DNA of 27,542 nt from the IMG/VR virus record IMGVR_UViG_2663762992_000005; one strand, 5' to 3'. Source of the DNA: a virus (Duplodnaviria; Heunggongvirae; Uroviricota; Caudoviricetes). The position numbers were made by a program, and so were the translations under genes. This document shows, piece after piece, positions 762-19,463 of this stretch. The notes below the pieces were generated by a model. That model was not told where the DNA came from. It did not search any database and saw only the letters and a list, made by a program, of their open reading frames with translations. The stretch's first letter is position 1. Every line of letters begins with the position of its first letter.

Positions 762-3730
762 CTGTATGCTCCGCTCAGCCTGCCACCATCACGCCCCTGC
801 ACAGTCAGTGTTTTCATTGCTGCCTGTTCGGCAATCTCATACACCATCTTCAGCGCGCCGGGGCCTATTTCACCGTTACTGCCGTCATTCTGTATGTGCA
901 CACTGAACTGCTGATTAACCACCACGCCACCTCCCGTCCCTTCCATTCCCGTCGCGGTGACGGCCAGACGACCTTTACTGTCTCTGGTCAGCGGCATAAT
1001 CGCTTCCGGCCCCGCTTCCCCCATCAGTCCCGCCCCTTTGGCAAACGGAAACAGCGTGGGCCTGTCGACGACAGTAGAGCTGTAAGCACTGAGTCCCGGA
1101 GAGTCATAGACGCCCCCCCGGGCATTACCCACCACACCGGAAATTGCACTGCCAATCCCTCCCAGGATCCCTCCGGCACCACCCAGTGATCCGCCCAGTG
1201 CCTTCAGGCCGTTAACCAGCGCGGCATTCACCAGAATTTTCTGAATGGTCTGGAGTATCATCGTCCCCCAGTCACGCCATGAGCTTTTATTGCCGTTAAG
1301 GGTGGCGACAATATTATCCGCCAGCCCGTCCATGGCGTTCGACACTGCGTCCTTTATCTGCTGTGCATAGTTACCGGCCTTGTCCATCCAGTTCTTCATG
1401 CCTGCGGCGGCAGCTCCCGCAAAATCCTCCTCAGCCGCTTTTTTGTCTTCGGCGCCTTTTTTGACGATTTCAGTCTGCCTCTGCATTTCTTCGGCAAGCG
1501 CCTGTGTCTGTGCCTGGTAAAGCACTGATGAATGGTCTTTTACCTCCTCATCGAGCGCTTTCTGTTTCTGCGCAAAATCCTCACGGATCTGTTGCAGGGT
1601 GACCATCTGCTCATATTCCCGGTCGCTCATCGTCACCTGAGCAGCAGCGTTATTCTGCTCCTGCTGACGGCGTGCCGTTTCCTCCCTGACATCCCGGAGT
1701 TGCTTTTCAAGCGTCACGGCAAGATTACGTTGTGCGTTTTGCTTCTCCAGGGCTGCGTTTGTTTCAAGCTGGGCACGCAGTTGATCCTGCATAGCCAGTA
1801 CGCTTTCCTGGACCTTTGTCAGTTTTTTCCCGGCGTAAGACGCGATTTCCTGTTCAAAAGCCAGTAATTTTTTCTGACTTTCACCCATCCGCTCCGTTTC
1901 ACGCCCCTGCGCTTTCAGCACCACTTCCTGTTGCTTCAGTTGCGCCAGACGGCGAACACCCTCGCTGTCCTGATGGGCGGACACCCCGGTTTTTTTATCA
2001 CCGTAGAGTTTGTCTATCCCTCTCAGGGCAGAAGCGTACTCATCAGCGGTGATTTTTCCGGCCTTATAGCGGGTACTGAGATCGGCGGTGGCTTCTGCTG
2101 CAAGACGGGTTTTATCCGTCCCGGCCTTGATCCAGGCGGCCAGATTTATCTGGGCGGTGATTTCTTTGCTCTGCTCATCCTGGCGCTGACGGGCGGCCTG
2201 AGCCCGGTCTTCCTCCTGTTTTTTCTCTTCGTCCCGCTTCTCTTTGAGCTTTCGGGCGGGCTCATCAATATCCACCCCCACCGCGGCCGCCATCGCGCGA
2301 CTGGTCTCAATCTGCGCTGAAGCGTAGCCCTCAAGCCCTTCAGAAACAGCTTTCTTCAGCTTCTCCCACCAGCCAATGCTCTCCTCAGTCTGACGCTGTT
2401 GCTCCTTCATTTTGTCCGCAACGTCATCAAGCATGATTTTCTGCACCAGCGCCACCGCCTCGGCGGTTTTACCCAGGCGGGCCAGGGTGGCAATCTGCTC
2501 TATCTGCGCAGCATTAAATTCGTACCCCTGCTGCGTGGCATCCTGCATCGCTTTGACCGGATCGCCACTGATGGATGACAGCTGTCGGACCAGCTCATCA
2601 GCATTCCCCCCCAGTGATTCCAGCTGGCTACCGAGTGAGGACACGCGATCCAGCATCTCGCCGCTGAACCCGGCCTTAACCGCGGCCGTCACTGCCTTCA
2701 TGGAGCCATCCGTGTCACCCAGGCTTTTATTCAGCGCCCGGATCCGGGTCAGGCTGAGTGACGCGCCACTATTGCCTTGCAGTAATGCCGCATTCAGGGC
2801 TTTCGTTTTTTCTTCAGCTTTGCTGTAGGCAGACCACAGTGCCGTCACGCCAGAAACCAGCGCAATAATCCCCAGACCGACCGGCCCGCCTACCATCGCC
2901 AGTGCACCGTTCAGCAACGCGGTACCCGCGGCGGCGGCACGCGCTGACAGAGAAATCTCATAGTTCCTGGCGCTGATAAGACGCATGGCATCCGAGAGCT
3001 TCGACTTTCCGAGTGCTTCCAGTGCCTCCGCTTCTGCCGCTGCCTTTCCCGCCGCAGCCACCCGTTGTTTGGCGACGCTGGCCGCCATGTCTGACTCTTT
3101 AAGCTGCGCGTTTATCTTCCGGTATTCCTCTCTGTAACTGACCGCAAGACCGTACTCTTTATTGACTTTCTGCTGCTGATCGTAATGACGCGCCAGCGCC
3201 ACGGCATTTTCTTCGACAGCCTTCGCTGCTTCATAGTCTTTTGCCGCGCTCTGTGCCACATCCAGTGCTTTTTGTTTTGCCGCCTGCGCCGACTGGATTT
3301 GCGCCCGGGCGGCATCATATGCCGCCTGAGCGGTTTTGCTGAACGCGTCCCGCTGTTGCGCGAGTACACCTTTCAGTTGTTCAGCCCCCGTCAGCGTCCG
3401 GGATATCGCCGGTACCAGGGCATTAGCCAGCGTACTGGCGGACACATTCCCCGTGGCAGCAAAACCATTGAGAGCACTACGCAGTTGATCAAAGCCGCCG
3501 CTTCCTGTTTTCAGGCGCGAGGAAAGGCCTTCGAAAGTGCGTCCCAGCCCTCCGGCACTGGTACCCACACTGCCGATGGCATCCCCGGTCTCTTTCATTT
3601 CCCTGCGGGTGGACTCAGCAAATCGCCGGGCCTCACGGCTGCCGGTCTGATAAGCATCCATAAGGTCGGCTTTGAAAGAGGCGCTGTTCACATGCAGACT
3701 GACCGCCAGCGTTCCGGCATTACCACTCAT
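758..3730 (-). CDS. Tail tape measure protein
   Basis: 990-aa ORF with a long Ala/Gln/Lys-rich coiled-coil and a Gly-rich C-terminal region; sits between the G/G-T chaperone and M as in lambda. Confidence 0.85.
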   Translation of the reverse strand: MSGNAGTLAVSLHVNSASFKADLMDAYQTGSREARRFAESTRREMKETGDAIGSVGTSAGGLGRTFEGLSSRLKTGSGGFDQLRSALNGFAATGNVSASTLANALVPAISRTLTGAEQLKGVLAQQRDAFSKTAQAAYDAARAQIQSAQAAKQKALDVAQSAAKDYEAAKAVEENAVALARHYDQQQKVNKEYGLAVSYREEYRKINAQLKESDMAASVAKQRVAAAGKAAAEAEALEALGKSKLSDAMRLISARNYEISLSARAAAAGTALLNGALAMVGGPVGLGIIALVSGVTALWSAYSKAEEKTKALNAALLQGNSGASLSLTRIRALNKSLGDTDGSMKAVTAAVKAGFSGEMLDRVSSLGSQLESLGGNADELVRQLSSISGDPVKAMQDATQQGYEFNAAQIEQIATLARLGKTAEAVALVQKIMLDDVADKMKEQQRQTEESIGWWEKLKKAVSEGLEGYASAQIETSRAMAAAVGVDIDEPARKLKEKRDEEKKQEEDRAQAARQRQDEQSKEITAQINLAAWIKAGTDKTRLAAEATADLSTRYKAGKITADEYASALRGIDKLYGDKKTGVSAHQDSEGVRRLAQLKQQEVVLKAQGRETERMGESQKKLLAFEQEIASYAGKKLTKVQESVLAMQDQLRAQLETNAALEKQNAQRNLAVTLEKQLRDVREETARRQQEQNNAAAQVTMSDREYEQMVTLQQIREDFAQKQKALDEEVKDHSSVLYQAQTQALAEEMQRQTEIVKKGAEDKKAAEEDFAGAAAAGMKNWMDKAGNYAQQIKDAVSNAMDGLADNIVATLNGNKSSWRDWGTMILQTIQKILVNAALVNGLKALGGSLGGAGGILGGIGSAISGVVGNARGGVYDSPGLSAYSSTVVDRPTLFPFAKGAGLMGEAGPEAIMPLTRDSKGRLAVTATGMEGTGGGVVVNQQFSVHIQNDGSNGEIGPGALKMVYEIAEQAAMKTLTVQGRDGGRLSGAYR

Positions 3731-9097: not shown

Positions 9098-10357
9098 TCA
9101 GGCTCTGGCCAGAATAGTTTCGATTTCTGCCAGTTGTTTAGCTGTTGGCGCGTTATTGCCAGGTAAGATTTGTTTACTGTCGACCATATTCAGAGGCGTC
9201 AGGTATTTGTCCCCTCCGGCGATGGGAGGAAGGTTCTCCATGCGGCGAATGTCATTAACCGATAACCAGCCCCACTGACGGCCCAGCGCATAAGATTCAT
9301 AGCGTGACTTCTGATCCCCGCGCAGCAGGCCGGATACATTGAATTCAATGTACAGACTACCGCGCTCGCTGGGTAAAAGCAGATCGCGCATTAATGCGCC
9401 TTCATGACGCTTCAGCCAGGCTAAAAGCGTATACATGACGAACTGCAGCCCCTGATGCTCAATGTTGTTATTTGTGGCTTTCGCCAGCATCTGCACCATA
9501 TGAGGCGGGATTTTATAGAGTCGGCAAACTTCCTCCACGCCCCACTGGCGGGACTGCAACAGCTGCGCTTTCTCATTATCCTGAGATAGCTGTTTGTAGC
9601 TCATCCCTTCCTGAAGCAATGCGACAGAAAAGGCATTACGCATACCGGAATAACGATCCGTCCATTTAGCAAGAAGTTGGTCAATCTTCTCCTGGTTCTT
9701 TATTGTCGGAGCCTCCTTTGGTCGCTCAATAACGCCGCTCATCGTTGTGCCACGGCGAAAAACCTGAGAAGCATGCTCTTCAACGGCCAGGTTCAGCCCA
9801 AGAACGTCTGCGTTCGTCTGGATCGGAGAGCTACCGATATAACCATCCAGCGAGAAAACCTTCACATGATGCATCATGCGCATTGGCAACGTTTCGCCAA
9901 TTTCGGGGAGTTCATAATAGGGCATCCCGTCAGGCCCTTTCAGGACGATGACTTTTTTGGGATTAACCGGGATTAATTCGCGGGGATACCCTTTCCCGTC
10001 CCTGTCGATGATCGAGTAGCAATTTCCCTCCAGCCCGAGCAGGCCCTGTTGCTGCTCAAAGTATTCAAACGAGGTGTCTTTTTTGTTGGGCTGGGAATGA
10101 ATCAGATCATAAACAGGGTGGTCAGTCGCCCGTTCACGGCCTCCGTTAGCGCCTCGCCTGTAAAGTTCACACGGCAACTGCGCCACCGATTCTGCCAGAA
10201 GCGTTACGCATGCCCGGACCGCCGATAACGCCAGTGCGGTTTCAGGAGTGATAATGATCCCCGCCTTGCTCTGGCTGGAACTCACCCCACCCAGCATCGC
10301 CTGCCAGAAACCACCACCAGACTGAGATTTACCCCGAAACATCTGGGGAATGAACAT
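9098..10357 (-). CDS. Portal protein
   Basis: 419 aa between the terminase and the protease; ATG at 10355-10357. Confidence 0.8.
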   Translation of the reverse strand: MFIPQMFRGKSQSGGGFWQAMLGGVSSSQSKAGIIITPETALALSAVRACVTLLAESVAQLPCELYRRGANGGRERATDHPVYDLIHSQPNKKDTSFEYFEQQQGLLGLEGNCYSIIDRDGKGYPRELIPVNPKKVIVLKGPDGMPYYELPEIGETLPMRMMHHVKVFSLDGYIGSSPIQTNADVLGLNLAVEEHASQVFRRGTTMSGVIERPKEAPTIKNQEKIDQLLAKWTDRYSGMRNAFSVALLQEGMSYKQLSQDNEKAQLLQSRQWGVEEVCRLYKIPPHMVQMLAKATNNNIEHQGLQFVMYTLLAWLKRHEGALMRDLLLPSERGSLYIEFNVSGLLRGDQKSRYESYALGRQWGWLSVNDIRRMENLPPIAGGDKYLTPLNMVDSKQILPGNNAPTAKQLAEIETILARA

Positions 10358-13388: not shown

Positions 13389-13780
13389 TATCCTGTTTAT
13401 TTGATACAAACTTAGTAGAAAAAAAGGAATCAGAAACGGTCGCTAGCGGGAACTTCTCATTTATAAAGAGAACTTAGGCGGTCGCCGCCCAAGCATGTCG
13501 CAACGGCAAGTGACAATTAATAATGATAATACTTATACTTTATTGTCATTATGGAGGCTTTCAAGTGTCGACGTTATGCAGAAACCATGCCTGAGGAGAC
13601 CTTCGACAACACACTTATGTCTGACATGCTCAGCACTCAATTCCCTCCATCGGCAGTTTATGTTGTGCAACATAAATTATAGTGCCATCAATCACAGATT
13701 AAACAAGTGTGACTTATACACCCGTATCGTTGGATCAGTCTTTGGAGGAGTATTCATGATTGCCGTCATTAATCCGCGGA

Positions 13781-13814
13781 TTTTAATAAAAAAGCACTGG
13801 CAAATACCAGTGCT
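13781..13814 (-). terminator. Intrinsic terminator for the two-gene moron
   Basis: Eight-bp stem AGCACTGG/CCAGTGCT with a 6-nt loop, followed on the minus strand by TTTTTATT. Confidence 0.55.
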
Positions 13815-13889
13815 TTAACAATAACTCTACATCTAGAAAGTTAAAAATCTTAAAAGCAAAACATAAATAGCAATGTAAAATTAAATTAT

Positions 13890-14267
13890 TTATTTTTTGT
13901 CTTTAAAATAATAGCCAATTATAAACCCAAGAGATGTTCCTAACGCACTAACCATAATAGATAACACCTTATCTAACTCAAGTAGTGCGATACTTTTAGA
14001 AGCCTCCATGAGCCCTTTGCTTTGTAATTGAAGTACCCATTGCACTGCGCAATAGTTATAAACTATCACAAATATAAAAGAAAAAACGATAAGACCAAAA
14101 AAGCCTCTCATAAATGTTATGGTTAATGTACTCCTTGTTTTACCATCACGAAGAAATTGAGCCTGAATTTCATTTTCAATCTCTCCTGTTTCCTTCTCTA
14201 TTCTTTTATCTTCAAATCTTAACGCATTAACTTTAGATAACAAAGCCTGAATATCTTCCGTAGCCAT
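13890..14267 (-). CDS. Hypothetical membrane protein (coiled-coil N-terminus, two C-terminal TM helices)
   Basis: 125 aa; strongly AT-rich codon usage; ATG at 14265-14267 preceded by GGAGGGG located in the end of the upstream gene. Confidence 0.55.
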   Translation of the reverse strand: MATEDIQALLSKVNALRFEDKRIEKETGEIENEIQAQFLRDGKTRSTLTITFMRGFFGLIVFSFIFVIVYNYCAVQWVLQLQSKGLMEASKSIALLELDKVLSIMVSALGTSLGFIIGYYFKDKK

Positions 14268-14269
14268 TA

Positions 14270-14539
14270 TTACCCCTCCGACCTAAGCTCTGCTAATTTA
14301 TCGAGGGCATTAATGTATTTAGCATGTGCCTTATGATAATTGGCAATTGCTTTGAGCGACTCATTAATATCTTCAGAAAATGATGAATAAAATTCATATG
14401 GATCCTTACCAGCATAGTCAGGTAAGTTCGTTATGATTTTTTGTATTAAAACAATATTTTTATCCGTAAGTTCACCTGTAGCATCTCTGAATTCAAATAA
14501 ATTTTGAACTATAGCATCTATTTTTTTTACATTCGACAT
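14270..14539 (-). CDS. Hypothetical small acidic protein
   Basis: 89 aa, AT-rich, first gene of a two-gene unit with its own promoter. Confidence 0.55.
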   Translation of the reverse strand: MSNVKKIDAIVQNLFEFRDATGELTDKNIVLIQKIITNLPDYAGKDPYEFYSSFSEDINESLKAIANYHKAHAKYINALDKLAELRSEG

Positions 14540-14574
14540 ACATAATCCATTTTTCTCAGATTAACTGTTGAATT

Positions 14575-14604
14575 ATTATAGTTCATTTACACCTTTCATC
14601 TCAA
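14575..14604 (-). promoter_or_regulatory. Sigma70-like promoter for the two-gene moron
   Basis: Minus-strand TTGAGA (14599-14604), 18-bp spacer, TATAAT (14575-14580), about 35 nt upstream of the ATG at 14539. Confidence 0.4.
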
Positions 14605-15284
14605 CTTATCATACCATTGATAACACTTTTTTGAACCAGTCAGCTATGAGTGGCCCATCAAAGGATTTAGAGGTTCGATTCATCAGTGTTATCCAATTTA
14701 TCTTGACATCAATAGGGTAAACGGTTATGACTAAAACTACATGACTATCGCGTAGGCAATTCGGACAAAGGTGATTATCAAGCTTAGAAATGAAGGTACG
14801 TTTATATCCCACCAAATACCGTAACCACATTCATGGCGACTTTTTCAGTTCTGCGTTGATGCCAGACGTTGAGTTTGAGCCCCTCGTAATAGCCTAAACA
14901 GTCAGTAGTAGTCCGCAGACATCCTAGTGGGATAAGAAATCATATAGTTTTTTAATTTTCCGTCGCAAAGTAAAATCCCCAGGCGCAAACGGTTTACCCT
15001 AGCTAACTACTGTCACAGCATTCCCCTGAATGCCTGCTGCAATGCTCACTTAGTAGTGTTGAAGTCCTACCCCTTAAGCGATAAATCGGTAAAATTGAAA
15101 CTAAGGCTTCAATGATGTGACATAGAGACGGCGGTCCAATTCTATCAGTTTACCGATCAAAGCGACTACAAACTCCTTTTTTTTAATCTCATTCGATACT
15201 TCATATCGTTGAAGGAGTGTAGACTCAGGTCGTTGTGCATTGTGTAATTCATTTTCAATTTCTTTTAATGTATGGAGTAGAGTC

Positions 15285-15941
15285 ATGGGAATTCTCACTT
15301 TCGATATCACTTGCCCACATTGTCTGAGGGAAAATGCTGTCCTTGAAGGATGGGCAGAACTGCGTATCAACGCCGGGCCTTTAGTTAATATTGCATTTTG
15401 TTGTCGAAGCTGTTTTCAATCAGGTATTGCTATTGTAAAAATGAATAATCCCGGTGGTTATTTACCTCGTGCAAAATCTAGGCAAAATAATGATGTAAAC
15501 GTAATCATTCCTGGAAATACTGAGTACCAGTTGATTGATATCATCCCGAAACCCACCCTCCTTAACGCCCCCGAACACACTCCGCCACGTGCTGCTATGG
15601 CTTTCATAGAAGCAAAAGACAACTTAGGGCGCTGTCGTTTCGACACATCCGTTATGCTTTGCCGTAAAGTCTTGGACATTGCTACACGGGAGTTACTGGG
15701 AAATGACTCAAAAGATGAAAAATTGGTTAAACGGATTTCTATGTTGCATGCTAAGGGACTGATTACAGATCAAATGAGGGAATGGGCACATATAGTTCGA
15801 ATCGATTCCAATGGAGCAGTTCATTCTGATGAAGAATTTTCAAAAGAAGATGCTCAAGAAATGATTGGTTTCACCGAAGTATTTCTTCTATATGCCTTCA
15901 CATTGCCTGATATGGTAGACAACAAAAAACAAAATCAATAA
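15285..15941 (+). CDS. Zinc-ribbon protein with DUF4145/HEPN-like C-terminal domain; candidate abortive-infection or defence protein
   Basis: ATG at 15285 with GGAG 7 nt upstream. N-terminal CPHC and CCRSC cysteine pairs; C-terminal R-x7-H motif (VRIDSNGAVH) in a helical region, as I recall for DUF4145. AT-rich and opposite in strand to the surrounding phage genes. Confidence 0.55.
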   Translation: MGILTFDITCPHCLRENAVLEGWAELRINAGPLVNIAFCCRSCFQSGIAIVKMNNPGGYLPRAKSRQNNDVNVIIPGNTEYQLIDIIPKPTLLNAPEHTPPRAAMAFIEAKDNLGRCRFDTSVMLCRKVLDIATRELLGNDSKDEKLVKRISMLHAKGLITDQMREWAHIVRIDSNGAVHSDEEFSKEDAQEMIGFTEVFLLYAFTLPDMVDNKKQNQ

Positions 15942-16156
15942 GTTATAGAGCCACAGTTTGACATCCACACTTTGTTATGCATAAGAATGTCTTTCTTGGT
16001 CTGCCTGTCCAGCACTTCCCAATCATGAGCAGTGCCGTAGATGGGTTTTACCCAATCGCAGCCGGTGTCAATAACCTCAATCCTTACGTGTCCAGTTTTT
16101 GCGCAGCTCGCGATCAGCAGCGTCATCAGGCATATGGTTAACAGTCTGTTGTACAT
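15935..16156 (-). CDS. o-spanin (Rz1-like outer-membrane lipoprotein)
   Basis: Signal peptide with lipobox LIASC; start lies inside the i-spanin gene in another frame and the ORF extends past its stop (overlapped architecture). Confidence 0.65.
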   Translation of the reverse strand: MYNRLLTICLMTLLIASCAKTGHVRIEVIDTGCDWVKPIYGTAHDWEVLDRQTKKDILMHNKVWMSNCGSITY

Positions 16157-17672: not shown

Positions 17673-17700
17673 TTGATTTTATACATTAAAATATTACAAT
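17673..17700 (+). promoter_or_regulatory. Sigma70-like promoter for the plus-strand membrane protein
   Basis: TTGATT (17673-17678), 16-bp spacer, TACAAT (17695-17700), 30 nt upstream of the ATG at 17730. Confidence 0.35.
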
Positions 17701-17729
17701 ATATTTTTGACCAACTTTTGAAGAATACA

Positions 17730-18392
17730 ATGGACTCGAATACCTTAACCATTATAGGAACATTTATTGTTGCCATAATAAGCGGATTACTGGCTTATTC
17801 ATCTTCTCTTTCTGCAAAGGAAAAAGAGGTCAAATTATCCGCATATGAAAAACTCGGACTTGATATACATGCCAATCTTGAAAAGCTTTACAATAATACA
17901 GAATGGCTTTTACTGATTTTTCAACACAAGAATACATTAAACCGCGGAGATTTAATTATTGCCAACAAACAAGTTTCTCTAGACGTTGACAAACTCAGAG
18001 AACTTAGCATAAGAATGAGATTTTTTGATAATGCTTGCTATAAGAAATATGAATCTGTAGTTCAATCGCATGGTAATTTAATACCACAAATACTTGGTTA
18101 TACTCGGCATCCACATGAAACCCCAAGAGATGCTTCAGAACTTTACTCTCGAGAAGAAACACAGGAATTTATAAATAAATTATCCATACTAAAAGATGAA
18201 ATAAATAGCACTAAGATCCATATAACGAACAAAATAGCCAAGGAATATAACAAAGCCCTATCATCTTCAAGGAAAGTTACAGTGCTAGCTTTCATAGTAT
18301 TATTTACTGCATTTATAGCATTTATAATTTTCCCTTTGAAAGAGCAGTCACCTTCGCCCGCAAAAGAAAAAGTCATGCTGCTCTCTTCATAA
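17730..18392 (+). CDS. Hypothetical membrane protein with N- and C-terminal TM helices
   Basis: 220 aa from the ATG at 17730 (the track ORF starts at an upstream TTG); AT-rich; transcribed opposite to the late operon. Confidence 0.5.
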   Translation: MDSNTLTIIGTFIVAIISGLLAYSSSLSAKEKEVKLSAYEKLGLDIHANLEKLYNNTEWLLLIFQHKNTLNRGDLIIANKQVSLDVDKLRELSIRMRFFDNACYKKYESVVQSHGNLIPQILGYTRHPHETPRDASELYSREETQEFINKLSILKDEINSTKIHITNKIAKEYNKALSSSRKVTVLAFIVLFTAFIAFIIFPLKEQSPSPAKEKVMLLSS

Positions 18393-18611: not shown

Positions 18612-19463
18612 TTATTTTGTAGGTTTAGGACCTAACGTGAATTTTGATTTAGTTCCTTTTCGCAACCGTCTAACATCAGGAAAAAGTTCTACTAATCTAT
18701 CTGTACACTTAGTCAAGGATTCAGTACAAATAATCATCCCCATAATCATATAGCCAAAGTCATAGTTGTTAAAACAACCAGTTCCTCTTCCGTTTGGCTC
18801 CATTTTATAATATGACATAGGTAGTATATGCGTATAATGAGATAAAAAATCGAACATTATTTTAAATGACTTTGGATCTTTTCCCAGTTTAACCAATAAC
18901 TCATCTCGATTTGGAATCATAAGCGCTTTTCCAGTCAAGCAACGTTTTCTGGTTCCTTGTTCAAGGGATAAAAAAACAGGGTTGTTATTAAGTCTCTCAG
19001 TTATTATATCTTTTTGTTCATGATAAAAATCCAATGCTTTCGTATTATCACTAGATGTAAATAACTCAATTCTCTTTACACAATCATTCATGTGCATGAC
19101 ATTCAACTTTGCTGACCACTCCTCAGTTGAATCTGGATTCTCAGATAAATACATAAACAATAACTCAGCTTCCAGAATCGCTCTTACATGAGGTGCAATC
19201 GCCGAAAAATCCCAAAAGTCATAATCCCGCTTAGCCCATCTTGATTTTGGTACGTTGGAAATCATTATTGAAGCATGAATGCAGATTCGTGAAAAAATGT
19301 ATGTAGACCACCCTTTAAAAGCCTCAGCCATTCGCACACCAACCCCCTGACTTACAGCATTCGCTTCACATACAGCTTTATCAAACTCCCTTAAGTAGTG
19401 ATGGAAGTCATCCATCGAAAAATCGTTTCGTTCAAGTGGATTTTCGGGATTATCTATTTTCAT
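18612..19463 (-). CDS. Hypothetical protein (orphan, AT-rich)
   Basis: 283-aa ORF between the tR'-like terminator and the holin; followed by its own hairpin plus T-run near 18565-18584. Confidence 0.55.
   Translation of the reverse strand: MKIDNPENPLERNDFSMDDFHHYLREFDKAVCEANAVSQGVGVRMAEAFKGWSTYIFSRICIHASIMISNVPKSRWAKRDYDFWDFSAIAPHVRAILEAELLFMYLSENPDSTEEWSAKLNVMHMNDCVKRIELFTSSDNTKALDFYHEQKDIITERLNNNPVFLSLEQGTRKRCLTGKALMIPNRDELLVKLGKDPKSFKIMFDFLSHYTHILPMSYYKMEPNGRGTGCFNNYDFGYMIMGMIICTESLTKCTDRLVELFPDVRRLRKGTKSKFTLGPKPTK

Follow-up and report, generated by a model that had tools for sequence, protein, structure and literature searches.

A distant relative of the ring-activated RNase RAZR and its conserved head-to-head partner gene in a prophage cargo cassette

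A gene lying antisense to the lytic operons of a prophage raises the question of what its product does and in which phase of the phage life it is made. Such a gene adjoins the lysis cassette in the stretch of DNA analyzed here (27,542 nucleotides, hereafter the window), which belongs to a virus of the Caudoviricetes (IMG/VR record IMGVR_UViG_2663762992_000005). A sequence-only reading had described its product as a zinc-ribbon protein with a DUF4145/HEPN-like C-terminus and had proposed it as a single-gene candidate for prophage-encoded defence. The predicted plus-strand ORF of 218 aa was found exactly as claimed (Table 1), and it is indeed AT-rich, with a GC content of 0.406 (GC3 0.33) as compared to 0.53 and 0.58 for lysis genes and to a mean of 0.497 for the window. 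The convergent overlap with the o-spanin gene was also recovered, the two 3′ ends sharing 7 nt (15935-15941). To the right, the lysis cassette is encoded on the minus strand and is composed of two holins, a GH19 endolysin, the i-spanin and the o-spanin, while on the left, two small AT-rich genes are followed by HNH, TerS and TerL. The prophage backbone is close to Klebsiella phiKO2-like head genes (about 78% identity) and encodes its own portal at 9098-10357. The gene had been placed on the strand opposite to all its neighbours, which holds for the lysis and packaging genes but overlooked a small minus-strand gene, here called the partner, starting head-to-head with it.

Table 1. Positions of the features discussed in the text, counted from the first letter of the window
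Feature	Position	Strand	Basis or remark
Small gene, 125 aa, phrog_20796	13890-14267	-	GC 0.32
Small gene, 89 aa, phrog_21707	14270-14539	-	GC 0.32
Mobile two-gene cassette, about 0.93 kb	15010..15941	.	DNA alignment of close relatives
Partner gene, 61 aa, three-helix protein, phrog_8371	15101..15286	-	Translation, homology, dN/dS; ATG 15286-15284
Shine-Dalgarno GGAG of the main gene	15274-15277	+	Read from sequence; 7 nt upstream of the main ATG, within the partner coding sequence
Main gene, zinc ribbon + DUF4145/HEPN, 218 aa	15285..15941	+	ORF (ATG 15285-15287, TAA 15939-15941), Pfam PF13643, phrog_1305, AF2 model
Cys4 zinc-ribbon core, aa 1-57, putative sensor domain	15285..15455	+	Invariant cysteines, model strands
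Zinc ligands C10, C13, C40, C43	15312-15314, 15321-15323, 15402-15404, 15411-15413	+	Alignments
Hypervariable insert (aa 58-87) and proline-rich linker (aa 88-100)	15456..15584	+	Model, pairwise identity
DUF4145/HEPN helical domain, aa 101-218, putative RNase effector	15585..15938	+	
Catalytic-type motif R172-I-D-S-N176-G-A-V-H180 (R-x3-N-x3-H)	15798..15824	+	Invariance, alignment to RAZR
o-Spanin gene	15935..16156	-	phrog_1275 Rz-like spanin, E=1.8e-28
ORF, 239 aa, putative membrane protein	17673-18392	+	Hydrophobic stretches, no matches
Gene for a 283-aa protein	18612-19463	-	Sub-threshold DUF5677 match, E=2e-4

An exact-sequence look-up identified the main protein as WP_044690700.1, known from Citrobacter braakii, C. 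koseri and E. coli; DNA searches at near-identity, which covered phage records and complete E. coli genomes, did not retrieve the gene. The protein matches phrog_1305 over its full length (E=3e-42), and members of its clade occur frequently in the lambdoid and Stx prophages of E. coli, Shigella, Citrobacter, Klebsiella, Salmonella, Yersinia and Proteus. The Shine-Dalgarno sequence of the gene is kept in close relatives according to DNA alignment. A scan for sigma-70 promoters and terminators around the gene pair returned sites no commoner than in shuffled sequence and none positioned to drive the main gene or the partner. A repeat search at the locus detected short repeats only, probably due to chance, and Rfam gave no match within 13400-16100.

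The protein begins with MGILTFDITCPHC, followed further on by FCCRSC and, in the C-terminal helical region, by VRIDSNGAVH. Both CxxC pairs noticed at the N-terminus, CPHC (C10/C13) and C-RSC (C40/C43), are present, and little or no variation is seen at their four cysteines when 35, 51 or 103 homologues are aligned; C39, the leading cysteine of CCRSC, is not conserved. In the AF2 model (pLDDT 85.6), the ribbon is formed by beta-strands at aa 4-6, 20-27, 33-40 and 46-53, and profile searches gave marginal matches to RPB9/RPA12/TFIIS zinc ribbons, including 1QYP. It is followed by an insert predicted to fold as a short helix and a beta-hairpin (H61-65, E73-75, E81-87). Assignment of the C-terminal half to DUF4145 was substantiated by the Pfam HMM (PF13643, E=7e-11, 42.5 bits against a gathering threshold of 23.1 bits, aa 120-198). 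PF13643 is found in 120 of the 120 homologues listed, some of which also match PF05168 (HEPN); PF13643 belongs to the Pfam clan KNTase_C/HEPN, and the domain is an alpha-helical bundle with HEPN topology. The R-x7-H motif pointed out in VRIDSNGAVH corresponds to R172 and H180, its spacing being the R-x3-N-x3-H of DUF4145 proteins rather than the canonical R-x4-6-H of HEPN proteins. R172, D174, N176 and H180 are invariant in family alignments (45-98% identity), and R172, N176 and H180 are at least 90% conserved in a superfamily alignment of 103 sequences, whose representatives are roughly 25-35% identical. Among 51 homologues, mean pairwise identity is 47% for the ribbon, 26% for the insert, 48% for the linker and 71% for the HEPN domain. 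The family was thus correctly recognized from sequence, and the feature is real.

This conservation pattern bears on the name 'DNA binding protein', which PHROGs and RefSeq give to the family without a stated basis. Under such a reading, the protein would be a nucleic-acid-binding regulator, for instance a transcription or RNA-binding factor expressed during lysogeny, which would act through its zinc ribbon and in which the HEPN-like domain would be catalytically irrelevant. The annotation of phrog_1305 and of gp19 from Shigella phage 75/02 Stx, the resemblance of the ribbon to RPB9/TFIIS-type ribbons, which contact nucleic acid, and the existence of HEPN-fold proteins that are non-catalytic regulators (MtlR matches) are all in line with this view. 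However, the strong conservation of R-x3-N-x3-H is what is expected for catalysis, and for a DNA binder with sequence specificity one would expect the opposite of a most conserved HEPN domain combined with a most variable ribbon. In addition, the ribbon of RAZR, a characterized protein of the same architecture, binds protein and not DNA (PMC13017515). We therefore consider a regulatory function the least probable of the readings envisaged here.

RAZR was first described as PD-T7-4, annotated as 'Zn finger-HEPN' and assigned to abortive infection (Vassallo et al., 2022; PMC9519451). It was renamed ring-activated zinc-finger RNase and solved by Zhang et al. (2026, Nature; PMC13017515), the protein being RRL46918.1 from E. 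coli UMB1727 (PDB 9Y9C/9Y6U). It has been shown that its Cys4 zinc-finger domain, for which 1QYP served the authors as comparator, binds ring-shaped phage proteins, namely the portals of T7, T3 and SECphi18 and the Erf-like Gp77 of SECphi27 (PMC13017515). RAZR then forms a 24-mer around the ring, and its HEPN domains cleave ssRNA nonspecifically (PMC13017515). Defence is abolished by the R146A and by the H154A mutation, and specificity is set by the zinc-finger domain, which varies more than any other region of the protein (PMC13017515).

Homology of the main protein to RAZR itself is statistically supported by three approaches. The best PDB match of the superfamily profile (103 sequences) is 9y9c_OA, the RAZR chain (E=3.9e-7), with an alignment that spans the linker, the HEPN domain through CRIVGNQAVH and, weakly, the ribbon; taken alone, the ribbon section is not significant (6.7 bits). 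For pairwise comparison, full-length RAZR^Ec was rebuilt from two partial database proteins, giving 219 aa and reproducing 10/10 published residue landmarks. BLASTP against this sequence yielded 28% identity over 151 columns (aa 70-216, E=3e-4), and hhalign gave E=5.5e-5 with a probability of 66% over the HEPN core only, the zinc ribbon not being covered. The superfamily profile, BLASTP and hhalign all pair R172, N176 and H180 with R146, N150 and H154 of RAZR, and the linker (aa 88-100) aligns with residues 63-79 of RAZR. The PADLOC model for PD-T7-4 (PDLC04109), which recovers the rebuilt RAZR^Ec as a positive control with E=1.3e-102 (339.7 bits, positions 1-209/211), only touches the HEPN half of the main protein (aa 102-216, E=0.0023, 15.5 bits), short of a family-level match; the same model also touches 49 of the 103 superfamily representatives. 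An exhaustive profile search (E<=1e-3) delineated a superfamily comprising 2,815 clusters (50% identity), the majority of which are full-length proteins with 205-230 aa. On these profile and alignment data, the main protein is a distant relative of RAZR belonging to a separate clade.

The two proteins have almost the same length (about 219 aa for RAZR, 218 aa here) and share an N-terminal Cys4 ribbon (CPHC...C-x2-C), a proline-containing linker and a C-terminal DUF4145/HEPN domain with identical R-x3-N-x3-H spacing. Both also combine a most variable sensor domain with a conserved HEPN domain and are carried on mobile elements. They differ at both ends. The N-terminal module of the main protein is ~25 aa longer, its helix and beta-hairpin insert being absent from RAZR, whereas the C-terminal helix-loop-helix extension of RAZR comprises ~35 more residues and the main protein ends ~10 residues after the last HEPN helix. 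Similarly, the residues D179, D180 and R184, which form the dimer-dimer salt-bridge in RAZR, have no conserved counterparts in the main-protein family; BLASTP places P208, D209 and N213, from the variable tail, opposite to them in an alignment-dependent manner. As interface residues and extension are both without counterparts, higher-order assembly may differ between the two clades. At the genomic level, RAZR is a single gene which overlaps the 3′ end of a co-oriented integrase gene, and its loci are devoid of a partner gene, in contrast to the main gene, which resides in lambdoid prophage cargo hotspots, antisense to lytic operons and next to a conserved divergent partner. The main gene is therefore not a stand-alone single gene of the RAZR/PD-T7-4 type. 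The earlier proposal of a defence function is now founded on homology to RAZR/PD-T7-4, but the single-gene part of that proposal gives way to a two-gene cassette.

In public gene calls, proteins of the RAZR clade itself (L092-L096) are systematically shortened to about 146-166 aa: the 5′ end encoding the zinc finger overlaps with the integrase gene upstream, and the calls therefore begin at the internal Met63. As a result, the sensor domain of this clade is largely missing from sequence databases.

Taken together, we favour, with a probability of roughly 0.65, an abortive-infection sensor-effector of the RAZR type, carried in a prophage cargo cassette and expressed in the lysogen. By extension from a relative of 28% identity, the variable Cys4 ribbon domain, enlarged by its beta-hairpin insert, would recognize a protein of an invading phage. 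If the RAZR triggers are taken as a guide, candidate ligands would be portals, an Erf-like recombinase or other large oligomers with a ring shape. Trigger binding would rearrange oligomers of the protein in such a way that active composite RNase sites arise from the DUF4145/HEPN domains (R172, N176, H180). Cleavage of cellular and phage RNA at these sites would halt translation and abort the infection.

The genomic setting of the gene provided further information on when it might act. When close relatives residing in different phage backbones are aligned, DNA similarity stops 50-90 bp past the partner stop codon, and the right end of the cassette abuts and overlaps the o-spanin stop. As similarity ends just beyond the partner, the mobile unit is therefore composed of the main gene and the partner. 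A 98%-identical copy is located at this spanin/terminase junction in phages whose terminases are of the lambda Nu1/GpA type, while more distant copies, often adjacent to toxin-antitoxin modules of the RelE/ParE type, are found at the Q/holin junction or, in Stx-type phages, at the replication/nin junction (about 40 loci). A related E. coli prophage (C7, L101), with the same holin-endolysin-spanin...HNH-TerS-TerL backbone as here, carries two unrelated hypothetical genes at the spanin/HNH site (2474-3342 in that locus), which confirms this site as a variable cargo hotspot. The cassette thus moves between prophage hotspots as AT-rich foreign cargo, and in every hotspot the partner reads in the direction of the flanking lytic operon and the putative RNase gene against it. 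At other hotspots, the cassette adjoins RelE/ParE-HTH or RelB/YafQ toxin-antitoxin modules, with which it forms small cargo clusters in Stx-type and Salmonella prophages (L001, 4141-4702; L099, 1687-2232).

Since the main gene is antisense to the prophage lytic operons, its expression in the lysogen would depend on a promoter of its own. This arrangement has to be weighed against the possibility that the RNase benefits the phage during its own lytic cycle, through host shut-off or RNA processing. The gene is phage-encoded, it adjoins lysis and packaging genes, and HEPN RNases can process RNA. Nevertheless, its antisense orientation in every hotspot is typical of morons expressed during lysogeny, and it has the hallmarks of AT-rich foreign cargo, being present or absent among otherwise similar phages. 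A role in the lytic cycle thus appears highly improbable.

The second gene of the cassette had escaped notice, and most gene finders do not call it. The sequence CATG at 15284-15287 contains both start codons, that of the partner on the minus strand and that of the main gene on the plus strand. An equivalent arrangement exists in Shigella phage 75/02 Stx, in which gp19 is homologous to the main protein and the start of the small divergent gp20, homologous to the partner, overlaps that of gp19 by 2 nt. A partner with this CATG overlap was found at about 56/80 related viral loci, and nearly all members of the 213-224-aa clade of the main protein possess one. Within otherwise diverged sequences, two motifs, DRPEFTLMQRYE and ALIGKLIEQDR, are conserved. 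Synonymous sites are saturated (pS 0.74, pN 0.37), and unsaturated pairs give a dN/dS of about 0.29. Judging from this substitution pattern, the partner is conserved and protein-coding. A profile search retrieved 61 clusters, every one annotated as 'hypothetical'. The most distant partner, in Alcaligenes, is again divergent beside a DUF4145 gene and has the same 2-nt start overlap; comparison of these loci supports that partner and main gene are co-inherited from Enterobacterales to Alcaligenes. The AF2 model of the partner consists of three helices (pLDDT 90), and searches of Pfam, PADLOC and NCBIfam-type models returned no match, nor did structural and profile searches return a specific one.

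A conserved pair of this kind is reminiscent of a toxin-antitoxin module, in which the HEPN RNase would be a constitutively dangerous toxin and the 61-aa protein its antitoxin. The cassette would then serve chiefly to maintain itself in the prophage by addiction, defence being a mere by-product. In HepT/MNT systems, the antitoxin is an MNT nucleotidyltransferase; here, the partner is a three-helix protein without Pfam match, it is divergent and not co-transcribed, and no MNT antitoxin is adjacent in an operon as in HEPN-MNT type II/VII modules. HepT/MNT and minimal HEPN toxins (5YEP, 7AE2/7AE6) also contain R-x4-6-H, unlike the main protein with its R-x7-H and additional zinc-ribbon sensor domain. 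Furthermore, in the closest relatives of the main gene copy (L004-7, L014, L015), the HEPN gene is intact although the partner has lost the start codon ATG or is cut to a length of 32-45 aa, and a whole sister clade of 212-aa proteins (e.g. that of Klebsiella phage 2b LV-2017) is entirely without partner. Finally, RAZR is non-toxic when overproduced alone (PMC13017515). Because of its loss beside intact RNase genes, of the partner-less clade and of this innocuity of RAZR, an essential antitoxin role of the partner is unlikely; it is probably a modulator, which makes a toxin-antitoxin pair an unlikely explanation of the cassette.

The partner-truncating indels coincide with a homopolymer tract, namely a poly-T run at ~15167-15174 (within 15155-15175) that reads as A8 on the partner coding strand, in KKK codons. 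A 9-nt deletion is found there in L004/L007 and a 1-nt difference in L015, and the tract may be prone to slippage that turns the partner off.

Within the favoured reading of a RAZR-like sensor-effector, the presence of a partner means that regulation or mechanism differs in some respect from RAZR, which needs none. The orientation of the partner suggests that it is produced during the lytic transcription of the prophage, which would also run antisense through the sensor gene. Our favoured guess is that the partner and this antisense read-through together keep the sensor from firing on the ring proteins of the prophage itself. A more specific version would make the partner a built-in self-immunity switch, neutralizing the RAZR-like sensor during prophage induction. 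The partner ribosome-binding region lies antisense within the first codons of the sensor gene, and since the partner is also co-directional with the lytic operon, it would be made only upon induction. It would then bind or otherwise neutralize the sensor, so that the portal or recombinase rings of the prophage trigger no suicide. We regard this version as tentative and, on balance, doubtful. If true, this phage-encoded defence would come with its own off-switch, and the RAZR family would have a natural protein inhibitor in the partner.

The combination of a Zn-ribbon with DUF4145 has been known as a defence protein since 2022 and its mechanism was explained in 2026; the main protein is thus not a novel kind of system. 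What is new is a clade that PADLOC does not call, with an enlarged sensor, a different C-terminus and a conserved head-to-head partner. RAZR is so far the sole characterized Zn-ribbon/DUF4145 defence protein, and this knowledge rests on two closely related homologues. Members of the clade are publicly annotated as merely 'DUF4145' or 'DNA binding protein' and are not called by current defence finders. They make it possible to assess whether ring-templated activation generalizes beyond RAZR, offer new trigger specificities and give access to the question of how a prophage keeps its portal-sensing immunity from being set off by the prophage itself. Practical consequences concern host range in phage therapy and the annotation of prophage cargo genes carried by Stx phages.

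Other known systems share single features with the main protein. DS-38 (DefensePredictor, WP_001313577.1), a validated E. coli defence protein also described as 'HEPN + zinc finger', was considered as a match and rejected: this 366-aa protein has an N-terminal HEPN domain and a C-terminal multi-zinc-finger array, and it is unrelated because the domain order is reversed. HepS, a HEPN defence protein of the Gifsy-1 prophage (PDB 9OIK), senses the lambda J tail tip but contains no zinc ribbon, and as no sequence similarity to the main protein was detected, the analogy is conceptual only. The type I restriction subunit HsdR, BxaP and Ishtar1 have the Pfam domain DUF4145 in common with the main protein, but they are large multidomain proteins without zinc ribbon, with DUF4145 in N-terminal position ahead of helicase/REase or other modules.

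Other parts of the window are also rich in AT. For the two small genes between HNH/terminase and the cassette, Pfam and PADLOC gave no match, and both genes look like further prophage cargo; the 125-aa product has a hydrophobic C-terminal stretch, a putative transmembrane segment. A stretch of about 560 bp outside the cassette boundary (14540-15100) contains no convincing ORF, Rfam match or conservation among relatives, and related phages (L004-L006) have an unrelated gene of 157-170 aa at this place. A second AT-rich island (GC 0.32-0.36) is located between the Q antiterminator and the holins and contains the 239-aa plus-strand ORF and the gene for the 283-aa protein with its sub-threshold DUF5677 match (Table 1). 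In Alcaligenes (L097, 3316-4134), a bona fide DUF5677 gene directly adjoins the module formed by the zinc-ribbon-HEPN gene and its partner.
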